The position numbers were made by a program, and so were the translations under genes. 13,414 nt of DNA from Candidatus Hermodarchaeota archaeon (lineage in GTDB: Archaea > Asgardarchaeota > Lokiarchaeia > Sigyniarchaeales > SOKP01): the NCBI GenBank assembly GCA_048885525.1, contig JBHLLP010000066.1:1-13414 (forward strand), in the 5' to 3' direction. Under the pieces are notes generated by a model. That model saw only the letters and a list, made by a program, of their open reading frames with translations, had not been told where the DNA came from and searched no databases. This document shows, piece by piece, positions 1,031 through 7,622 of the stretch (within the stretch, counting starts at the first letter, position 1; every line of letters starts with the position of its first letter).

Positions 1031-1993
1031 ATGATAAAAAATAAGAATGTAGTAATTACTGGGGGAGCAGGTTTTATAGGTTCTCATCTTTTTGAAAGAT
1101 TAATTGAGAGTGACAATTTTGCAATAATCATAGATAATTATAGCAGTCCGTATTCTGAAAATGAAAAGATCATTTCAGATATAACAAAAAATTATGAAAT
1201 TGATAAAGAATATGATCTTCTAAAAATGGATTTAGTGGAGGATTCAACTTTTACAAAGATCGATTACGATATTGATATTATTTTCCATTTAGCAGCCATA
1301 CCGGGAGTTCGTTATTCTATTAAGAATGCGGTAAAAGTTACAGATAATAATATTATCAGCACAGTGAATATCTTTAAAAATGCTTTAAATAGGAACGTGA
1401 AAAAAGTAGTTTTTGCTTCATCATCCTCTATATATGGAAATCCACTTTATACTCCTGTGGATGAAAATCATCCAAAAAATCCAATATCTCCATATGCGGT
1501 TTCGAAATTATGTTGTGAACTTTATGCAGATTATTATTATAGAGAATTTGATTTACCTGTAACCTCACTTAGGTTTTATACCGTATATGGACCAAGAGGA
1601 AGATCTGATATGGCAATTAGAATATTTATAGATAATATACTGCACAACAGACCAATAAAGGTATTTGGTAATGGAGAACAGATTAGAGATTTTACATATA
1701 TTTCAGATATTGTTGATGGTTTAATTTTAGCAGCAGAAATTGATCAATCTTCTGGTGAAGTTTTCAATTTAGGATGCTCAAATCCAGTAAGTATAAATCA
1801 ATTAGTTGATAAAATGTATAAGATTGCAAAGAAACCTAAAAATGTTCAATACTATGACAGGCAGAAAGGAGATGTAGAAATCACACATTCTAATATAGAT
1901 AAGGCTAAGAAAGTGCTAAATTTTGAACCCAAAGTTAATATAGATGATGGATTACCAAAAGCATACGAATGGCAACTTAATATTTCGGAATAA
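1031..1993 (+). CDS. NAD-dependent epimerase/dehydratase, UDP-glucuronate 4-epimerase-like
   Basis: ITGGAGFIGSHL Rossmann motif, HLAAIPGVRYS, FASSSSIYG, YAVSK. RFYTVYGPRGRSDMA matches the RFFTVYGPxGRPDMA signature of the UDP-glucuronate epimerase-like subgroup. Confidence 0.92.
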   Translation: MIKNKNVVITGGAGFIGSHLFERLIESDNFAIIIDNYSSPYSENEKIISDITKNYEIDKEYDLLKMDLVEDSTFTKIDYDIDIIFHLAAIPGVRYSIKNAVKVTDNNIISTVNIFKNALNRNVKKVVFASSSSIYGNPLYTPVDENHPKNPISPYAVSKLCCELYADYYYREFDLPVTSLRFYTVYGPRGRSDMAIRIFIDNILHNRPIKVFGNGEQIRDFTYISDIVDGLILAAEIDQSSGEVFNLGCSNPVSINQLVDKMYKIAKKPKNVQYYDRQKGDVEITHSNIDKAKKVLNFEPKVNIDDGLPKAYEWQLNISE

Positions 1994-2020: not shown

Positions 2021-4273
2021 ATGAGCGACATTAAAATTAAAATTTACAAAATTCTTTTCTATTTAAGAGATAACATTCATCTAATTTTTTTTCTCTCATC
2101 AATTTTATCTCTTGTAATTGTTTTTTTAAATTTAATGGGATTTTCATCAGTCTTATTTCAACCCTTCACTTTACTAAGTACAATTTTTATATATTTATTT
2201 TTACCTACATATCCTATTTTTTACACAATATTTAAAGAGAAGGGTTTTACTATTGCAGAGAAACTTAGTTTAACAATCGTTATTAATTTCGTTTTTTATA
2301 TTCTTATAGGCTATATTGGTTATTTTCTAGGGATTCCTCTCACAGGCTTTTTCTTCTTTTTTTCATTAATATTATGCTATTTTTCTGTTATATCTTATAT
2401 AGCATATCGCGAACTCAAATCAGGAACATATAATTTTTTTAAATCCAAAAAAACTTTTGATGAAAAAAAGAATCAATATAGGAGTTTTTCACTAATTAAA
2501 AAGATTAAAAATTCGATTCCTTTAAATGTACTTTTGTTGATTATTTTTATTTTTTTGATTTGTATTTTAAATATTGTAAGAGTAAGTTATTTTGCAGGTA
2601 CAGATCCATGGAAACATATTTTTAATAGCAGACTAATTACCGAATATCATTATCTACCTCTCGGAAATTACAAGGGAGGGATGGGGTTAAACATTCTTGA
2701 AGCTCTAATTACTTTTTTTTCTGGTTTAGATCATATCATTATTCCGCGATATTTCATATTTTACACTTTTTTCTTATCAAGTTTAATATTTTATAATATA
2801 TCTATGAGGATTTTTAAGAATCTAAATTTAGCTCTATTTAGTGTTTTTCTCTTAGAATTCTCGTCATTAGGATTTTCAATAATGATGATCCAGTATTGGC
2901 CTTCTGGTTTAACCTTAATCATGTGTTTAATGGCGTTTTTCCTTTTATATTTAAGAATGCAGAAATTCATTCAATTAAAGCGTCCAGAGAAGAAAGCTAT
3001 TTTCGAAGATATTTATTTTATTTACTCTTTAGTAGCATTGATTTTCATAAGTGCTTTCCTTACACACGTGATAACTGCAGCAATTTTTTTATTTTCATTT
3101 ATATGGTTATACTTTGTTTATTTCTTAAAAGATTATAAAAGAGGAATTGACCTCTTATTTGTTTTTGGCTTATTTGGAATCTTATTAATCTTGAATTATT
3201 TAGGCATAGGGCGGGATTATGCTAATTTATTTATTCCAATTAACATTTCTTGGTATTTTATAGTAGCAATTGGAATTGCAGGAATCGTATCAGGAGCAAT
3301 CATTTTCTGGAAAATACAAAAATCAATTAATTTTACCAAGGGAAGATATAAATCAACAATAATAGGGAAGACAAATAAAATTTATAAGAAAATAGAGGAT
3401 AAAATAATAATTCCTCTTATTTTTAGTATAGTAATTTTATTAACAATTATTATATTAATAATAAATATTTTATTGTTTAATCTCGAAACTATCAATATAA
3501 TAAACATCACTGAAATCATACTTTTTAGTTTTTTTGCATTCTGGGGATTAATTATTTTTCAAAAAAAGCCAAAAGGTAAAGTCTTATTTATTTGGGGTGC
3601 ATTTTTTGTAGTATTATTAGGAGTAGGGTTTATCCTTAACATATTTTTAATTAATATAATGGTCTGGGAAAGAATTTTATTTCTTATCGCCCCTTTAATT
3701 GTGTTTGGTTTTATTTCATATATTCATAAACTTATAAAGGTAAATTCAATTCAGAGTGTACGTATTAAATTATTCATTTTATTAACAATTGCATTTTCAT
3801 TATTTATTACTTATTTTAATGAATTTGTAAGTATTGAGATTTTTAATACGAAAAATAGAGAAGTAAGCACTCTCCAATGGTATTCAAATAATACTCATAA
3901 TCAAAATGTAGTATTTTCTGAATTTGGATGGGGATATGTAATTAATTACTATGATTATCCTTTTAACGATAAAGATGGAGCTCTTCTATACAATGAGAAT
4001 ATCTATATCATACCCACTGAAATAGATTTATTTCCACCGGCTAATCATATTAACGAAAGTGGGATAAATCTATTAAAAGACCTTAAAAATAAATATAAAA
4101 CTGACGTATATATCATCTTCGAGAATGATTATATAATAGATAGAGGTTTTGAATTATTTGGACGTTTAACACAAGAGGAAACAGAACAATATTATAATCT
4201 CGATTATTTAAATAAAATTTGCTCATCGAAAGTCGAAGATGGCACAGAAATACCTCTATATTGGGTTATTTAA
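2021..4273 (+). CDS. Polytopic membrane protein, probable GT-C fold glycosyltransferase (AglB/STT3/PMT-like architecture)
   Basis: 750 aa with many hydrophobic segments. N-terminal LFLPTY...EKLSLTI segment resembles DUF1616-type repeats. GTDPWKH follows a TM helix (D at codon 2603-2605). A soluble C-terminal domain begins TLQWYSNNT...VVFSEFGWG. Lies directly downstream of two sugar epimerases. The CDS is certain; the function is inferred. Confidence 0.6.
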   Translation: MSDIKIKIYKILFYLRDNIHLIFFLSSILSLVIVFLNLMGFSSVLFQPFTLLSTIFIYLFLPTYPIFYTIFKEKGFTIAEKLSLTIVINFVFYILIGYIGYFLGIPLTGFFFFFSLILCYFSVISYIAYRELKSGTYNFFKSKKTFDEKKNQYRSFSLIKKIKNSIPLNVLLLIIFIFLICILNIVRVSYFAGTDPWKHIFNSRLITEYHYLPLGNYKGGMGLNILEALITFFSGLDHIIIPRYFIFYTFFLSSLIFYNISMRIFKNLNLALFSVFLLEFSSLGFSIMMIQYWPSGLTLIMCLMAFFLLYLRMQKFIQLKRPEKKAIFEDIYFIYSLVALIFISAFLTHVITAAIFLFSFIWLYFVYFLKDYKRGIDLLFVFGLFGILLILNYLGIGRDYANLFIPINISWYFIVAIGIAGIVSGAIIFWKIQKSINFTKGRYKSTIIGKTNKIYKKIEDKIIIPLIFSIVILLTIIILIINILLFNLETINIINITEIILFSFFAFWGLIIFQKKPKGKVLFIWGAFFVVLLGVGFILNIFLINIMVWERILFLIAPLIVFGFISYIHKLIKVNSIQSVRIKLFILLTIAFSLFITYFNEFVSIEIFNTKNREVSTLQWYSNNTHNQNVVFSEFGWGYVINYYDYPFNDKDGALLYNENIYIIPTEIDLFPPANHINESGINLLKDLKNKYKTDVYIIFENDYIIDRGFELFGRLTQEETEQYYNLDYLNKICSSKVEDGTEIPLYWVI

Positions 4274-5063
4274 ATATTTCATAATCTCCTAGAAATTTAA
4301 GGTCTTTTTTGCCATTTAAAATCCTATGTTTTTCTCCTTCAATTTTTACTAGTTGTGGAAGTTTACCCGTTTGACCCACTTTATTTTCTCTGGATATGAA
4401 TGTGCCGATGATACCATCAAGATCATCTGCTGCATCTAATCCTTGTTTTATAGATTTTTCAATATCTTCTCCCTTAACTAAATTACATATTTTTGTAGCT
4501 GCAGCATCTGCTAATGCAGCATTTTTTGCAAAGATAGTTACAGCATCAGCTTGCCCTAAACTAATAGCATGGCCTACTGTCGCAGAACTTGTTCCGATAC
4601 CCAGAGGGCAATCTTTCTTTTTTACTAAAAAACCTAAGTTGAGGTTCAATTCATTTTCTCCAGCATAAAGAGCAATTGTTATTGGTTCTTGAGAATCGAG
4701 TGCAATTTCTCCTCCGTTTTCAACCATAGCAATTTTGGGATAAACAAATCCAGATTCTTCACTATTGTCTTTAGTCTTCATAGCTTCAAGCATCAAATCT
4801 GCCAATGCTCCAGCGACAGCAGCCATAGGTCCAACATCACAAACTTCTGCTGTTTCAGCCATAATATTAACAATTTTGAAGTTAGTTATTACCTTTACGG
4901 GACTAAAAGAATTTAAAAAATCTCTATTCTTTGCCACAAATTTTTCTAAATTATTTCGATGGAAATAAAAACTCTTTTTTGCTTGTAAAATTGCTTTCCT
5001 TGAATCAGATATAATTGTAACATCAGATTCTTTTTCCAAAAAACGTGTTTTGTAAGTTTTCAA
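4266..5063 (-). CDS. UPF0280 family protein (ApbE superfamily)
   Basis: Family-typical motifs VGPMAAVAGALAD, VENGGEIAL, GIGTSSATVGHAISLGQADAVT and ALADAAAT. TTG start. Confidence 0.9.
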   Translation of the reverse strand: MKTYKTRFLEKESDVTIISDSRKAILQAKKSFYFHRNNLEKFVAKNRDFLNSFSPVKVITNFKIVNIMAETAEVCDVGPMAAVAGALADLMLEAMKTKDNSEESGFVYPKIAMVENGGEIALDSQEPITIALYAGENELNLNLGFLVKKKDCPLGIGTSSATVGHAISLGQADAVTIFAKNAALADAAATKICNLVKGEDIEKSIKQGLDAADDLDGIIGTFISRENKVGQTGKLPQLVKIEGEKHRILNGKKDLKFLGDYEIFK

Positions 5064-5176
5064 ATCTAATTAAAGGTTAAAATCATTTGTGTTTTAGTAT
5101 TATAATGAGTCTAAGAACTAAACAAATATAAATAAATAGTTTTTCATTATTTATGTAAATACACAATTTCTCAATT

Positions 5177-5668
5177 ATGAGTCAAAATAAATACGAAAAT
5201 ATTATCTCTCAATTAAAATCTGATTTAAATGCTGAGTGTGCTATAGCAAATAAATATGGAATTATATTAGGATCATTAATAAAGGAATTTACGAAAGGAA
5301 AAGTTATACCTCAAGGGATTTTATCTTTGATTTCCAATTCTAAGGACATAGCGAATGAACTTAATTTAAAAAAAATAACATCCTTTGCGTTGGAATCAGA
5401 AAAATATAATTATTTATTCTCATTTAGTGAAGAATTAATACTTATCTCAAAATTAGATTTAAATGTAAATTTAGCAAAGTTTATGCCAAATATTAGTGCT
5501 TTTTTAAAGAAATTAAATCTGAGTATAAATGAAGAAGACATAAAGAATTTTTCTGTCTTCGATTTTTCAAAAGAAATCACAAAGATTGAAGATACTCTAG
5601 AACGAGATAAAATTAGAAAAAATAAATATTCAATTATTAAGGATTTAGTTAAACACATTTCAAATTAA
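5177..5668 (+). CDS. Roadblock/LC7 (MglB/LAMTOR-like) domain protein with C-terminal helical extension
   Basis: The first ~115 aa follow the Roadblock alpha-beta-beta-alpha-beta-beta-beta-alpha pattern (YENIISQLKSDL / CAIANKYGIILGS / ILSLISNSKDIANELNL / SFALESEKYNYLFSF / LILISKLD / NLAKFMPNISAFLKKL). Immediately upstream of a small GTPase gene. Fold assigned by eye. Confidence 0.7.
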   Translation: MSQNKYENIISQLKSDLNAECAIANKYGIILGSLIKEFTKGKVIPQGILSLISNSKDIANELNLKKITSFALESEKYNYLFSFSEELILISKLDLNVNLAKFMPNISAFLKKLNLSINEEDIKNFSVFDFSKEITKIEDTLERDKIRKNKYSIIKDLVKHISN

Positions 5669-5697
5669 GTTTTAAGATTTAAAATTTTGTTTATCAT

Positions 5698-5702
5698 GGT
5701 GA
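5698..5702 (+). promoter_or_regulatory. Putative Shine-Dalgarno motif (GGTGA) for the GTPase gene
   Basis: GGTGA is a common archaeal SD core and lies 6 nt upstream of the in-frame ATT at 5709. Confidence 0.5.
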
Positions 5703-5708
5703 ACGATT

Positions 5709-7622
5709 ATTTTAAGACAAGTATTTGTTTATAGAAGCAATGAACTTTTATATTATAGACATTTTGGGAAAGCTTTAAAACAGGAAGTATTAGATCTTCT
5801 AATAGAAGATATCATTAATGAAGCACTGATTAGGACTGAATCTAATATAGATTTTCATGATTATTACAAATATAGAGTATCTTTCATTACAGATAAGGCA
5901 AATAATCTCATCTTTTTATTTGTGACAAGTTTATCTGATAAATTTGAGAATATAAAAAAAGAATTGGAAAAATGTAGATCTGAATTCTTAAGTTTATTTG
6001 AAGATATTTTACAACATCGGTTTGATACTAAAACTTTCGAGGTCTTTGATCCTACTATCGATTCTATCCATCGGAATTTACGCCCTAAAATATCTCTAGT
6101 TGGATTTTCTGGAGTTGGAAAAACAACAATTACTAAATTAATCAAAGCTGATGAAATTCCAATGCAACATATACCAACAATTACAGGAGATATTGCAACT
6201 ATAAGAATTGGTAAGCTTCACTTTCATTTGTGGGATTTCGCTGGACAAGAACAATTTAGTTATTTATGGAACAATTTTATAAAAGGTAGTGATGCGGTAC
6301 TTTTAATCACTGATTCTTCATTAGAAAATATTGAAAAAAGCAAGTATTTCCTAGATTTAATAAGAGAGCAAGCTCCGAAGGCTCAAGCTGCGGTAATAGG
6401 AAATAAGCAGGACTTAAAAGACGCGCTAAACCCTGTTCAAATTGAAAAGATTTTGGGTTTAAAAACTTACTCTATGATAGCGTTGGACCCAAATAACCGT
6501 GATAAAATGATTCAAATAATTGCTGATATTTTAGAAATGAGTGCAGAAGTTTCTCCTCTATTGAAGCCCCTTCTTGAGAGAGATAAATTAACAGAGGAAG
6601 CAGTCAGAGCTCTTAAGGATGCTGATTTTAATAAAGCAGCCTTTCTATTTGATAAAATTAGTGATTTATGCATAGAATTAGGAGATGATTCCTTAGGGCG
6701 AGAATTTTTTGATAAAGCACAAAAAATTAAAGATATGCTTAAGGAAGTAGGGGCACCTCCACGTACTCCCGCGACACCTATAGAACCCAAAGAAATGACG
6801 CCTCAAGTAAATCTTGAAAAACCTGAAGAACTTAAAGAACACGTTTCTGTTCCAGAACCAAGAATTTCAGATCAAACAATACAATCTAGCATACCACCTC
6901 AAGAAAAACCATCAATTATTACCCAAAAATTACACACTATACAAAAACCGATTGAAGCACCTAAAGTTGAAAAACCTTCAGAAATTTTAACTTCAGAGAG
7001 AAAAGAAGAAATCTCTGAACTAGAGGCTCAAAGTTTTAAACAAGTTGAACCCTCAATAAAACCAGAAATTAAGCAAGAAACTGTTGGTTTAAAGTTGAAC
7101 CCAGAAGATTTTATGGTAAAAGCTACACCAAAATCTGTAAGTTTTGTCCCTAAAGATGCGAAAGATAAATTGAAAATATCACCGTATAGTCAAGTAAAAA
7201 ATGTGGAAGAATCTAAAGCCTCTGTAGCTGTATCACCATTCAAAATATTAGATAAAAAAACACCTTCAATTCCTCCTTCACCAAAATTACCTGAAATTCC
7301 AAGAGGGCCGCTTGAATCTAAAGAAATAAAAGCTACTCCACAAATTAGTGAAGTAACAAAAGTATCTACACCAATAAAAAGTGAAATTCCAAAAAAACCT
7401 GCTTCAATTGAAACATATCAAAAAGATAATATAAATAAATCATTACTTGATTTAAAAATAAGAAAAGCAAGTATTTCTAAAATGCTTATAGAGCTTGATA
7501 TGAAAGAACTCACGGGGGAAATTACAGCTGAAGAAGCTAGGGAAAAAAAAAAGAAAATTGACTTATTGGTTAATAAAATTGATGGGCAAATCCAAGAATT
7601 ACAAAAGCTTTTAAATGATTAG
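5709..7622 (+). CDS. Multidomain small GTPase: N-terminal longin-like domain + Arf-like G domain + helical bundle + Pro/Glu/Lys-rich linker + C-terminal coiled-coil/SHOCT-like hairpin (~637 aa; ORF track start 5922 is probably internal)
   Basis: G1 GFSGVGKT (6102-6125), G2 HIPTIT, G3 WDFAGQ (6231-6248), G4 NKQD (6402-6413), plus Arf-like LWNNFIKGSDAVLLITDS. The frame is open from 5703 (after TGA at 5700-5702) and reads ILRQVFVYRSNELLYYRHFGKALKQEVLDLLIEDIINEALIRTESNIDFHDYYKYRVSFITDKANNLIFLF into the called V/M at 5922. The GTPase call is firm; the exact start is inferred. Confidence 0.85.
   Translation: MLRQVFVYRSNELLYYRHFGKALKQEVLDLLIEDIINEALIRTESNIDFHDYYKYRVSFITDKANNLIFLFVTSLSDKFENIKKELEKCRSEFLSLFEDILQHRFDTKTFEVFDPTIDSIHRNLRPKISLVGFSGVGKTTITKLIKADEIPMQHIPTITGDIATIRIGKLHFHLWDFAGQEQFSYLWNNFIKGSDAVLLITDSSLENIEKSKYFLDLIREQAPKAQAAVIGNKQDLKDALNPVQIEKILGLKTYSMIALDPNNRDKMIQIIADILEMSAEVSPLLKPLLERDKLTEEAVRALKDADFNKAAFLFDKISDLCIELGDDSLGREFFDKAQKIKDMLKEVGAPPRTPATPIEPKEMTPQVNLEKPEELKEHVSVPEPRISDQTIQSSIPPQEKPSIITQKLHTIQKPIEAPKVEKPSEILTSERKEEISELEAQSFKQVEPSIKPEIKQETVGLKLNPEDFMVKATPKSVSFVPKDAKDKLKISPYSQVKNVEESKASVAVSPFKILDKKTPSIPPSPKLPEIPRGPLESKEIKATPQISEVTKVSTPIKSEIPKKPASIETYQKDNINKSLLDLKIRKASISKMLIELDMKELTGEITAEEAREKKKKIDLLVNKIDGQIQELQKLLND

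Follow-up and report, generated by a model that had tools for sequence, protein, structure and literature searches.

A conserved gene pair in Lokiarchaeia encoding a divergent Roadblock-fold protein and a tailed longin-Arf-like GTPase: a candidate two-protein GTPase module

In the mglBA genes of Myxococcus and Thermus, a Roadblock gene lies directly upstream of a co-oriented small-GTPase gene. Small GTPases number in the dozens in Asgard genomes, which also encode many Roadblock and longin proteins. Fusions of a longin domain to an Arf-like GTPase are already in print for this group: five were reported in Lokiarchaeum (Klinger et al. 2016, as cited in PMC4917890), others were modelled for MK-D1 by Tran et al. 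2024 (PMC10933270), and longin N-termini among Asgard Arfs are mentioned in PMC11914678, while the preprint of Vargova et al. (10.1101/2024.02.28.582541) names longin in its introduction only. According to the accessible text of Tran et al., Roadblock/longin dimers act as platforms for small GTPases, operons joining GTPase and Roadblock genes are generally lacking, and genome layout rarely reveals which regulator fits which GTPase. Here we analyse a stretch of 13,414 nucleotides (nt), hereafter the window, from a Candidatus Hermodarchaeota archaeon (contig JBHLLP010000066.1, C66 among the 87 contigs of the 3.58-Mb genome GCA_048885525.1), whose protein relatives carry the source labels Promethearchaeota or Lokiarchaeota. 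The window contains two co-oriented genes, one for a divergent Roadblock-fold protein of 163 amino acids (aa) and one for a 637-aa longin-Arf-like GTPase with a long tail, that stay together across an order of Lokiarchaeia. The data support a dedicated two-protein GTPase module, for which a mechanism can be proposed by analogy.

A first-pass annotation, made from the letters alone, had described a Roadblock-like gene that ends 40 nt before a co-oriented Arf-like GTPase carrying its own longin-like domain. Both genes were confirmed in place, as an open reading frame (ORF) at 5177-5668 followed by the GTPase frame on the same strand, and all three domain assignments were borne out by independent lines of evidence: for the Roadblock protein an AlphaFold2 model, Foldseek, VIA-align and a family profile agree, the longin fold is found at the GTPase N-terminus by AlphaFold2 and Foldseek, and the Arf-like character is supported by the Pfam score, Protein Data Bank (PDB) matches to Arf and Arl proteins and intact motifs. 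The annotation had left open whether this architecture was described before. On this point the answer is divided, since the longin-Arf-like fusion is published, as cited above, while the conserved operon with a Roadblock gene was not found described.

The 163-aa protein lies beyond the reach of curated family models. No Pfam family matched it even at E <= 10 and NCBIfam gave none, while a scan of the host genome with PF03259 (Robl_LC7) returned 15 places, 13 of them above the cut-off and corresponding to ordinary Robl_LC7 genes, and none of the 15 is the 163-aa gene. The AlphaFold2 model (predicted local distance difference test, pLDDT, 82.4) contains the elements H3-17 E20-25 E29-33 H46-61 E69-73 E77-83 E87-94 H99-118 H131-162, and its core presents the alpha-beta-beta-alpha-beta-beta-beta-alpha topology of Roadblock/LC7 (MglB-like) domains. 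The first 10 Foldseek matches are all Roadblock or MglB structures, with MK-D1 Roadblock3 at the top (9jue, E 7.5e-6), and the top matches further include MK-D1 Roadblock 7yh1, MglB (6hjm, 6h5b, 6izw, 3t1x), Thor Roadblock 7f8m and LAMTOR subunits. VIA-align returned Z scores of 13.8 for 9jue_D, 12.9 for 7yh1_D and 12.8 for both 7f8m and MglB 6hjm_A, so that Roadblock structures span 13.8-12.3 and stand above GAF domains and profilins (~10-11). At the sequence level, a 30-member family profile matches the solved Roadblock 7yh1_D with E 1.1e-5. Homology is thus supported, and the model identifies a predicted Roadblock-fold protein that stands outside the curated Pfam model. The family is narrow: among candidates of similar length 432 proteins reach E <= 0.001, and 1.84 billion proteins yield only 37 cluster representatives (50% identity), nearly all of 160-177 aa.

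Beyond its core, the Roadblock protein carries an extra C-terminal helix. Solved Roadblock chains align to model residues 1-125 only, which excludes this helix. It is conserved in a set of 30 sequences whose identity falls as low as 22%, with a nearly invariant E133 and a conserved amphipathic motif, K-Y-x-I-I-K-D-L-V-K-x-I-S, at its end. Two Lokiarchaeal structures in the PDB touch on the same protein classes, namely 9m28 (monomeric Rag-like GTPase 'LokiRagM', 2026) and 8yqk (the Roadblock domain of a Roadblock-Longin protein, 2025); a literature search for papers on these two entries found none.

The second gene encodes a GTPase preceded by a domain of about 120 residues. Its AlphaFold2 model (pLDDT 88.6, predicted TM-score 0.83) shows the elements E2-9 E12-18 H25-41 E47-52 E55-62 E67-74 H79-97 H107-119, that is, the beta-beta-alpha-beta-beta-beta-alpha-alpha order without an N-terminal helix that is the topology of longin domains. 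For residues 1-119 the best Foldseek match is the VAMP7 longin domain (4b93_A, E 7.2e-6, TM 0.76), other longin matches being Sec22b 1ifq, synaptobrevin-like 1, sigma- and mu-adaptins and TRAPP Bet5/Trs23 (2j3t). SRX (1nrj_A) appears at rank 31 with E 9.3e-4, and the model also matches Ragulator subunits (5y3a_G, 6ehr_B) and MglB (6hjm_L). No curated family recognises this domain: the Pfam search gave unrelated sub-threshold matches only, and a profile of the domain run against PDB sequences returned nothing below E 0.8, which is chance level.

The G domain is of the Arf family. Pfam Arf scores 79.7 bits (cut-off 22.3), Roc, Ras and Gtr1_RagA (25.3 bits) also being matched, and the best PDB sequence matches are Arl1 (2e-16), Arf1, Arl8 and Arf6; the best 60 such matches consist of Arf/Arl proteins and one 'GTP-binding protein', with MglA absent. 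The domain carries the Arf-family motifs G1 GxxxxGK[ST], G3 DxxGQ and G4 NKxD. Because GFSGVGKT, DFAGQ and NKQD do not vary among 28 orthologues, GTP binding and hydrolysis are predicted. The N-terminal amphipathic helix of Arf proteins, often myristoylated and coupled to an interswitch toggle, is missing, with the 119-residue longin domain in its place, and the orthologues carry the NCBI name 'ADP-ribosylation factor-like protein'.

C-terminal to the G domain, a conserved segment of 60 aa contains the invariant columns S282, L284, L285, P287, L288, R291, D292, G325, D326, D327, F333 and K336 and probably folds as a helical hairpin with the invariant G-D-D at its turn; Pfam gave only a non-significant TPR_8 match there (E 0.2). 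It is followed by a linker of roughly 230 aa in which residues 345-560 comprise 31 Pro, 30 Lys, 28 Glu and 23 Ser out of 216, a composition that presumably makes it disordered. Orthologues range from 562 to 777 aa, and conservation within the linker is confined to the region around residues 461-492. At its end the protein has a conserved, charged, heptad-like segment of roughly 65 residues, broken at L-T-G-E, which is probably a helical hairpin or coiled coil and which tblastn recovers at 34-60% identity in 19 of 20 ten-kb loci. Several weak matches were set aside: GvpG on the C-terminal segment (E 0.0036, 17.9 bits against a cut-off of 30.6), and the Pfam models TPR_8 and DUF2357, both below their cut-offs. 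NCBIfam likewise had no match for the longin domain or for the two conserved segments C-terminal to the G domain. An ESM Atlas look-up with the C-terminal 83 residues gave no usable match, and neither a Roadblock profile nor Pfam detected a Roadblock domain C-terminal to the G domain.

The extent of this gene depends on an unusual start codon. The GTPase frame is open over 5703-7622, its first ATG, GTG or TTG is GTG 5922, and the public gene call is accordingly a 566-aa protein. The GTPases of relatives begin M-(I/V)-I-L-R-Q-V, M-L-R-Q-V or similarly, and these residues align with T-I-I-L-R-Q-V encoded from window position 5703. When the DNA of 48 loci, including our own, was aligned on the Leu codon of L-R-Q-V, the codon at the start position was ATT in 34, ATA in 8, ATG in 5 and GTG in 1. 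An exact GGTGA stands 6 nt before this codon in 31 of the 48 loci, and most of the others differ by one mismatch or a one-nt shift. The frame opens just two codons before ATT 5709 because the GGTGA itself contains an in-frame TGA; in locus L020 a TAA immediately precedes the ATT codon. Downstream, the 71 codons from 5709 to 5921 show 151, 112 and 353 changes at codon positions 1, 2 and 3 (13 pairwise comparisons summed), so by this substitution pattern they evolve as coding sequence, and 17 residues of the 120-aa N-terminal domain are invariant in 28 sequences. We infer that the GTPase gene spans 5709-7622, encodes 637 aa and is initiated at AUU. The 40-nt gap proposed in the first-pass annotation, and hence the start at 5709, is backed by this Shine-Dalgarno (SD) geometry in the 48 loci. 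If translation starts there, public calls drop 71 residues of the longin domain.

A truncated or broken gene, starting at GTG 5922 and lacking longin strands 1-5, or else an assembly error, would explain both the 566-aa public call and the lack of any ATG, GTG or TTG within 5703-5921. We consider this reading highly improbable, and it was already disfavoured by the evidence just given: the spacing from the SD motif to ATT, ATA, ATG or GTG is kept across the 48 loci, the 71 codons show coding-type substitutions, and the confident domain fold requires those 71 residues. Furthermore, contigs from other sequencing runs covering 5460-6133, 5460-5777 and 5634-5990 contain zero differing letters and zero indels, which makes a frameshift artefact unlikely; these contigs come from four runs of one study, two of which are possibly the window's own source. 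A +1 frameshift from the out-of-frame ATG 5696 was also rejected, as that ATG overlaps the SD motif, its frame shuts after 12 codons, and it is absent in relatives that still keep the SD motif and ATT at the same distance. Separately, at position 6421 the contigs of all four runs have G (GGC, Gly) and the window has A (GAC, Asp); this position varies among orthologues, and the mismatch is probably due to strain variation or to a difference in consensus.

This kind of start seems to be a genome-wide habit rather than a peculiarity of the GTPase. A scan of the whole genome considered each GGTGA behind which, after 6 nt, a frame of 150 codons or more begins; the first codon of that frame was ATA 10 times, ATT 9, ATG 7, TTG 4 and ATC 3, and every other codon occurred at most twice, a pattern that points to initiation at AUU, AUA and AUC. 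Examples are located at C22:10738(+), C18:16061(+), C15:28923(+) and C24:40089(+). A literature search on AUU starts in Asgard archaea found nothing relevant.

The linkage of the two genes was followed in 301 genomes sampled from the phylum; those of the window's order are kin, so that the counts are not independent. At a profile threshold of E <= 1e-45, a strong orthologue of the Roadblock protein is present, one each, in 70 of them (own genome included), 65 in the window's own family f1 and 5 in its sister family f2; outside those 70 only weak matches to ordinary Roadblock paralogues were seen. The same 70 genomes hold the strong orthologue of the longin profile, the copy of G243 being cut by a contig end, whereas the 223 genomes of families f5-f30 gave nothing with that profile at E <= 1e-10. 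Co-absence is equally strict, for the six genomes of the order that lack the Roadblock orthologue (G216, G159, G246, G297, G083 and G089) also lack the long GTPase, four of the six being 84-87% complete. A synteny survey had been set beforehand as a test of the proposed pair, and by coordinates the two genes are adjacent and co-oriented, in a single gene order, in 67 of the 70 genomes. Contig ends cut two of the exceptions (G198, G113), and in G129 the genes lie on different contigs. Consistently, tblastn on the loci of 49 relatives showed the GTPase to be the next gene downstream, in the same orientation, in 47, while L008 stops 200 nt past the Roadblock gene and L005 (from G129) has another gene there. 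In the family f2 loci L031 and L046 the pair alone is shared and the flanks are different. In family f2, identity is 29-38% for the Roadblock protein, 38-47% for the longin domain and 69-71% for the G domain.

The local signals fit a single transcription unit. Intergenic gaps run from ~12 to 176 nt and are 12-60 nt in most loci, and the spacer in the window has no T-run longer than 4. Archaeal operons often combine a leaderless first gene with SD-led internal genes. The Roadblock gene has no SD motif in 49 of 50 loci (an SD-like motif within 20 nt of its start occurs in L033 only), while the GTPase gene has one, a pattern that would fit a leaderless Roadblock gene followed by an SD-led internal GTPase gene. 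A block similar to ataaata..cattattta recurs in the genus ~45 to 20 nt before the Roadblock start; the A/T-rich stretch at 5132-5176 is a probable promoter/TATA region, with the first gene leaderless or short-leadered. In the exceptional L033 (G207:C10), the Roadblock gene itself seemingly starts at ATT behind a GGAGG motif.

Within the host genome the pairing appears specific. A G-domain search found 59 small-GTPase ORFs, and these are mostly not neighbours of the ordinary Roadblock genes, in agreement with the accessible text of PMC10933270. The nearest paralogue of the GTPase (C24:41253-42308, minus strand, 342 aa, ATG start) has the longin and G domains, stops right after the conserved 60-aa segment without any tail, and has no Roadblock gene upstream. 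Since this tail-less paralogue has no Roadblock neighbour, it is the long, tailed GTPase with which the divergent Roadblock protein travels. On the other strand, the paralogue is flanked by two paralogous ORFs of ~370-380 aa that start MP(I/V)GLV(I/V)MRW.

The analysis shows three folds, GTPase motifs that are intact, a consistent geometry at the start codon, adjacency kept across genomes and strict co-occurrence of the two genes. Building on them, we propose by analogy with MglB that the Roadblock protein sets the nucleotide state of its partner GTPase, a reading towards which we lean slightly. Mechanistically, both genes would be expressed from one transcription unit encoding a matched small-GTPase switch, the first probably leaderless and the second read from its SD-led AUU. 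In the GTPase, the longin domain would replace the usual Arf N-terminal amphipathic helix. The Roadblock protein would act as a dimeric platform, either as a homodimer or as a pseudo-heterodimer with the cis longin domain, and would dock on the GTPase to control its nucleotide state, as a GTPase-activating protein (GAP) and/or by promoting exchange, as MglB does on MglA. The extra C-terminal helix could provide a second contact, like the Ct-helix of MglB. As reported in PMC6785124, MglB works on MglA through its dimer face and through this helix, which contacts MglA at a place distal to the active site, and the outcome is dual action as GAP and guanine nucleotide exchange factor (GEF). In turn, the GTPase tail may recruit partners or drive self-association, and the weak AUU/AUA start may keep the GTPase below its regulator in abundance. 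Co-transcription, binding, the direction of regulation, what the tail does and the argument on stoichiometry are our inferences. The GAP/GEF action, the regulation by a cis longin domain and the trafficking or polarity role suggested in the first-pass annotation likewise draw on analogy with MglB/MglA, Ragulator/Rag and SRX/SRbeta. A prediction of the complex between the Roadblock protein and GTPase residues 1-343, run twice without controls and without the tail, gave an ipSAE of 0.00, a value that weighs neither for nor against binding.

Several observations weigh against this regulatory proposal. The G domain is Arf/Arl-like and not MglA-like, and the analogy with MglB therefore reaches from one GTPase family to another. 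As AUU/AUA starts behind GGTGA seem common in this genome, the weak start may reflect a general habit rather than a device for stoichiometry. The gap widens to ~146-176 nt in the f2 loci and L048, leaving room for a separate promoter, and the search among longer proteins, itself weak evidence, found no longer or fused versions of the Roadblock protein. In family f1, moreover, synteny extends over most of the surroundings and takes in the epimerase, the 750-aa membrane protein and the PRK04334-like, PHP, aspartate kinase and Rab-like GTPase genes, so adjacency in f1 taken by itself is weak evidence. Such broadly kept gene order would be expected if the two genes were neighbours by inheritance only and worked in different processes, with the Roadblock protein perhaps serving other GTPases among the dozens available; the general absence of GTPase and Roadblock genes from operons in MK-D1, as given in the available portion of PMC10933270, points the same way. 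This interpretation is decidedly improbable in our view, as the pair survives in L031 and L046 where the flanks differ, its co-presence and co-absence are strict within the order, and the tight spacing in most loci comes with an internal SD motif.

Other readings keep the partnership but change its purpose. The Roadblock protein and the cis longin domain could form a pseudo-heterodimer that localises or stabilises the GTPase and leaves catalytic rates unchanged, the two folds pairing side by side as do LAMTOR pairs, Rag C-terminal domains and the longin pairs of TRAPP and Mon1-Ccz1. The accessible text of PMC10933270, in a comparison that also takes in profilin, gives the Roadblock and longin folds a common dimerisation core, the longin-domain model matches Ragulator subunits and MglB, and in family f2 both parts evolve faster than the G domain. 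Shared phylogeny alone, however, predicts similar divergence rates, and the searches made here yielded no mixed Roadblock-longin dimer, which leaves such a scaffold unlikely though worth considering. Alternatively, the extra Roadblock helix might bundle with the C-terminal helical segment of the GTPase tail, or with the short linear motif of that tail, making the Roadblock protein an adaptor rather than a regulator of the G domain. The tail is what distinguishes the long form from the paralogue that has no Roadblock neighbour, and the extra helix is what sets this Roadblock family apart from the 13 ordinary Robl_LC7 genes, but the argument is purely correlative and draws on one paralogue in one genome; we regard it as quite improbable. 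In a bolder and unlikely picture, the GTPase would bring along half of its regulatory platform: the trans Roadblock protein and cis longin domain, as a pseudo-heterodimer, would cradle the Arf-like G domain as a minimal Ragulator/TRAPP-like unit, the Pro-rich tail, with its linear motif and terminal coiled segment, would tether it to a partner or surface, and the AUU/AUA start would set dosage, giving an operon-encoded prokaryotic intermediate between MglB/MglA and the eukaryotic longin/Roadblock GEF-GAP platforms.

Around the pair (Table 1), the 750-aa membrane protein matched nothing in Pfam and NCBIfam searches, is kept in relatives at 24-51% identity, and may be part of a glycan-assembly locus. 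The PRK04334-type gene is divergent from the Roadblock gene and neighbours the pair in most loci; in the f2 loci L034 and L037 it is instead co-oriented and directly upstream of the Roadblock gene. The Rab/Ras-like GTPase, very strongly conserved among the loci of family f1 (77-94% identity), is encoded 4 kb downstream of the pair, with gene order kept. Nothing was found when the whole window was scanned for Rfam families and tRNAs.

Table 1. Features of the window, with positions on the forward strand and the evidence for each.
Feature	Position	Strand	Evidence or remark
Two NAD-dependent sugar epimerase/dehydratase genes	3-896, 1031-1993		
Polytopic membrane protein, 750 aa	2021-4273	+	Adjoins the two epimerase/dehydratase genes
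PRK04334-type conserved hypothetical protein	4266-5063	-	NCBIfam NF003321, E 4.6e-69, below its cut-off
A/T-rich stretch 5' of the Roadblock gene	5132-5176	+	Without Shine-Dalgarno-like motif
Divergent Roadblock/LC7-fold gene, 163 aa	5177-5668	+	ATG start, TAA stop; core residues 1-118
Roadblock protein, additional C-terminal helix (residues 131-162)	5567-5662	+	Model pLDDT ~63-82
Intergenic spacer, 40 nt	5669-5708	+	GGTGA (Shine-Dalgarno) at 5698-5702; its TGA in the GTPase frame
GTPase start codon ATT, inferred AUU initiation	5709-5711	+	Geometry, homologous codons, substitution pattern
Longin domain, residues 1-119	5709-6065	+	AlphaFold2 model, Foldseek
Arf-like small GTPase domain, residues ~124-282	6078-6554	+	Pfam, PDB sequence matches, invariant motifs
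P-loop GFSGVGKT	6102-6125	+	Invariant in 28 sequences
Switch II DFAGQ	6234-6248	+	Invariant in 28 sequences
NKQD	6402-6413	+	Invariant in 28 sequences
Conserved segment of 60 aa following the G domain (SPLLKPL..RD...A..LGDD..EF..K..KI)	6555-6737	+	Conservation
Pro/Lys/Glu/Ser-rich linker, variable length	6738-7415	+	Composition, orthologue lengths
Conserved linker motif LKLNPEDFMVKxxPKSVxxVPKDAKxKLKxSP	7089-7184	+	Conservation
Conserved C-terminal segment (residues ~570-637) and stop codon	7416-7622	+	Conservation
Rab/Ras-like small GTPase, 174 aa	11658-12182	-	Pfam Ras E 1.6e-48

In genomes with so many candidate partners, an operon kept across an order of Lokiarchaeia provides one matched pair of GTPase and candidate regulator for bench tests, and such assays could ask whether archaeal Roadblock proteins regulated Arf-like GTPases before eukaryotes arose. 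The start codon has consequences beyond this locus. Gene callers restricted to ATG, GTG and TTG cut most of the longin domain (566 versus 637 aa), and domain censuses that rely on their output therefore undercount longin-GTPase fusions; if the AUU/AUA/AUC habit is true, the same calls truncate a set of proteins of the host genome.

The individual parts of this system are known ones. No description was found of the conserved pairing, of the additional helix or of the tail. The Lokiarchaeal longin-Arf-like ('Rag-like') fusions, from the same phylum, share with our GTPase an N-terminal longin domain and a G domain with Arf as its best-scoring family; the papers on them are catalogues of architectures which, in their accessible text, describe neither an orthologous group with a 300-aa tail nor a dedicated Roadblock partner. 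A full-text literature search, which did not cover supplements, where this protein may be listed, likewise found no description of a Roadblock partner or operon, and the operon is an apparent exception to the general lack of such GTPase-Roadblock arrangements.

Comparison with better-known systems brings out both likenesses and differences. The infC gene of E. coli starts at AUU behind a Shine-Dalgarno motif. Here too a near-cognate AUU follows such a motif and is conserved across relatives, the difference being an archaeal genome in which the habit is seemingly widespread. In SRX-SRbeta of the eukaryotic receptor for the signal recognition particle (SRP), a longin-like domain is likewise combined with an Arf-like GTPase; here, however, both are in one polypeptide, the longins of VAMP7, Sec22b and adaptins match better, and no transmembrane anchor or SRP context is seen. 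The Ragulator-Rag system resembles the pair in that Roadblock-fold proteins serve as a GTPase platform, LAMTOR2/3 and Rag C-terminal domains match structurally, and Gtr1_RagA scores just above its Pfam cut-off, Arf scoring far higher; it differs in that the present GTPase has no C-terminal Roadblock domain of the kind through which Rag/Gtr GTPases heterodimerise and the locus no LAMTOR1-like anchor. As regards mglBA of Myxococcus and Thermus, the likeness to MglA is one of gene layout only, since the G domain is Arf-like here and is accompanied by a longin domain in cis as well as by a long tail. In that layout the correspondence is direct, with the Roadblock gene immediately upstream of, and co-oriented with, the small-GTPase gene, and the likeness to MglB extends to the protein itself, which carries a helix beyond the Roadblock core and counts MglB among its best structural matches.

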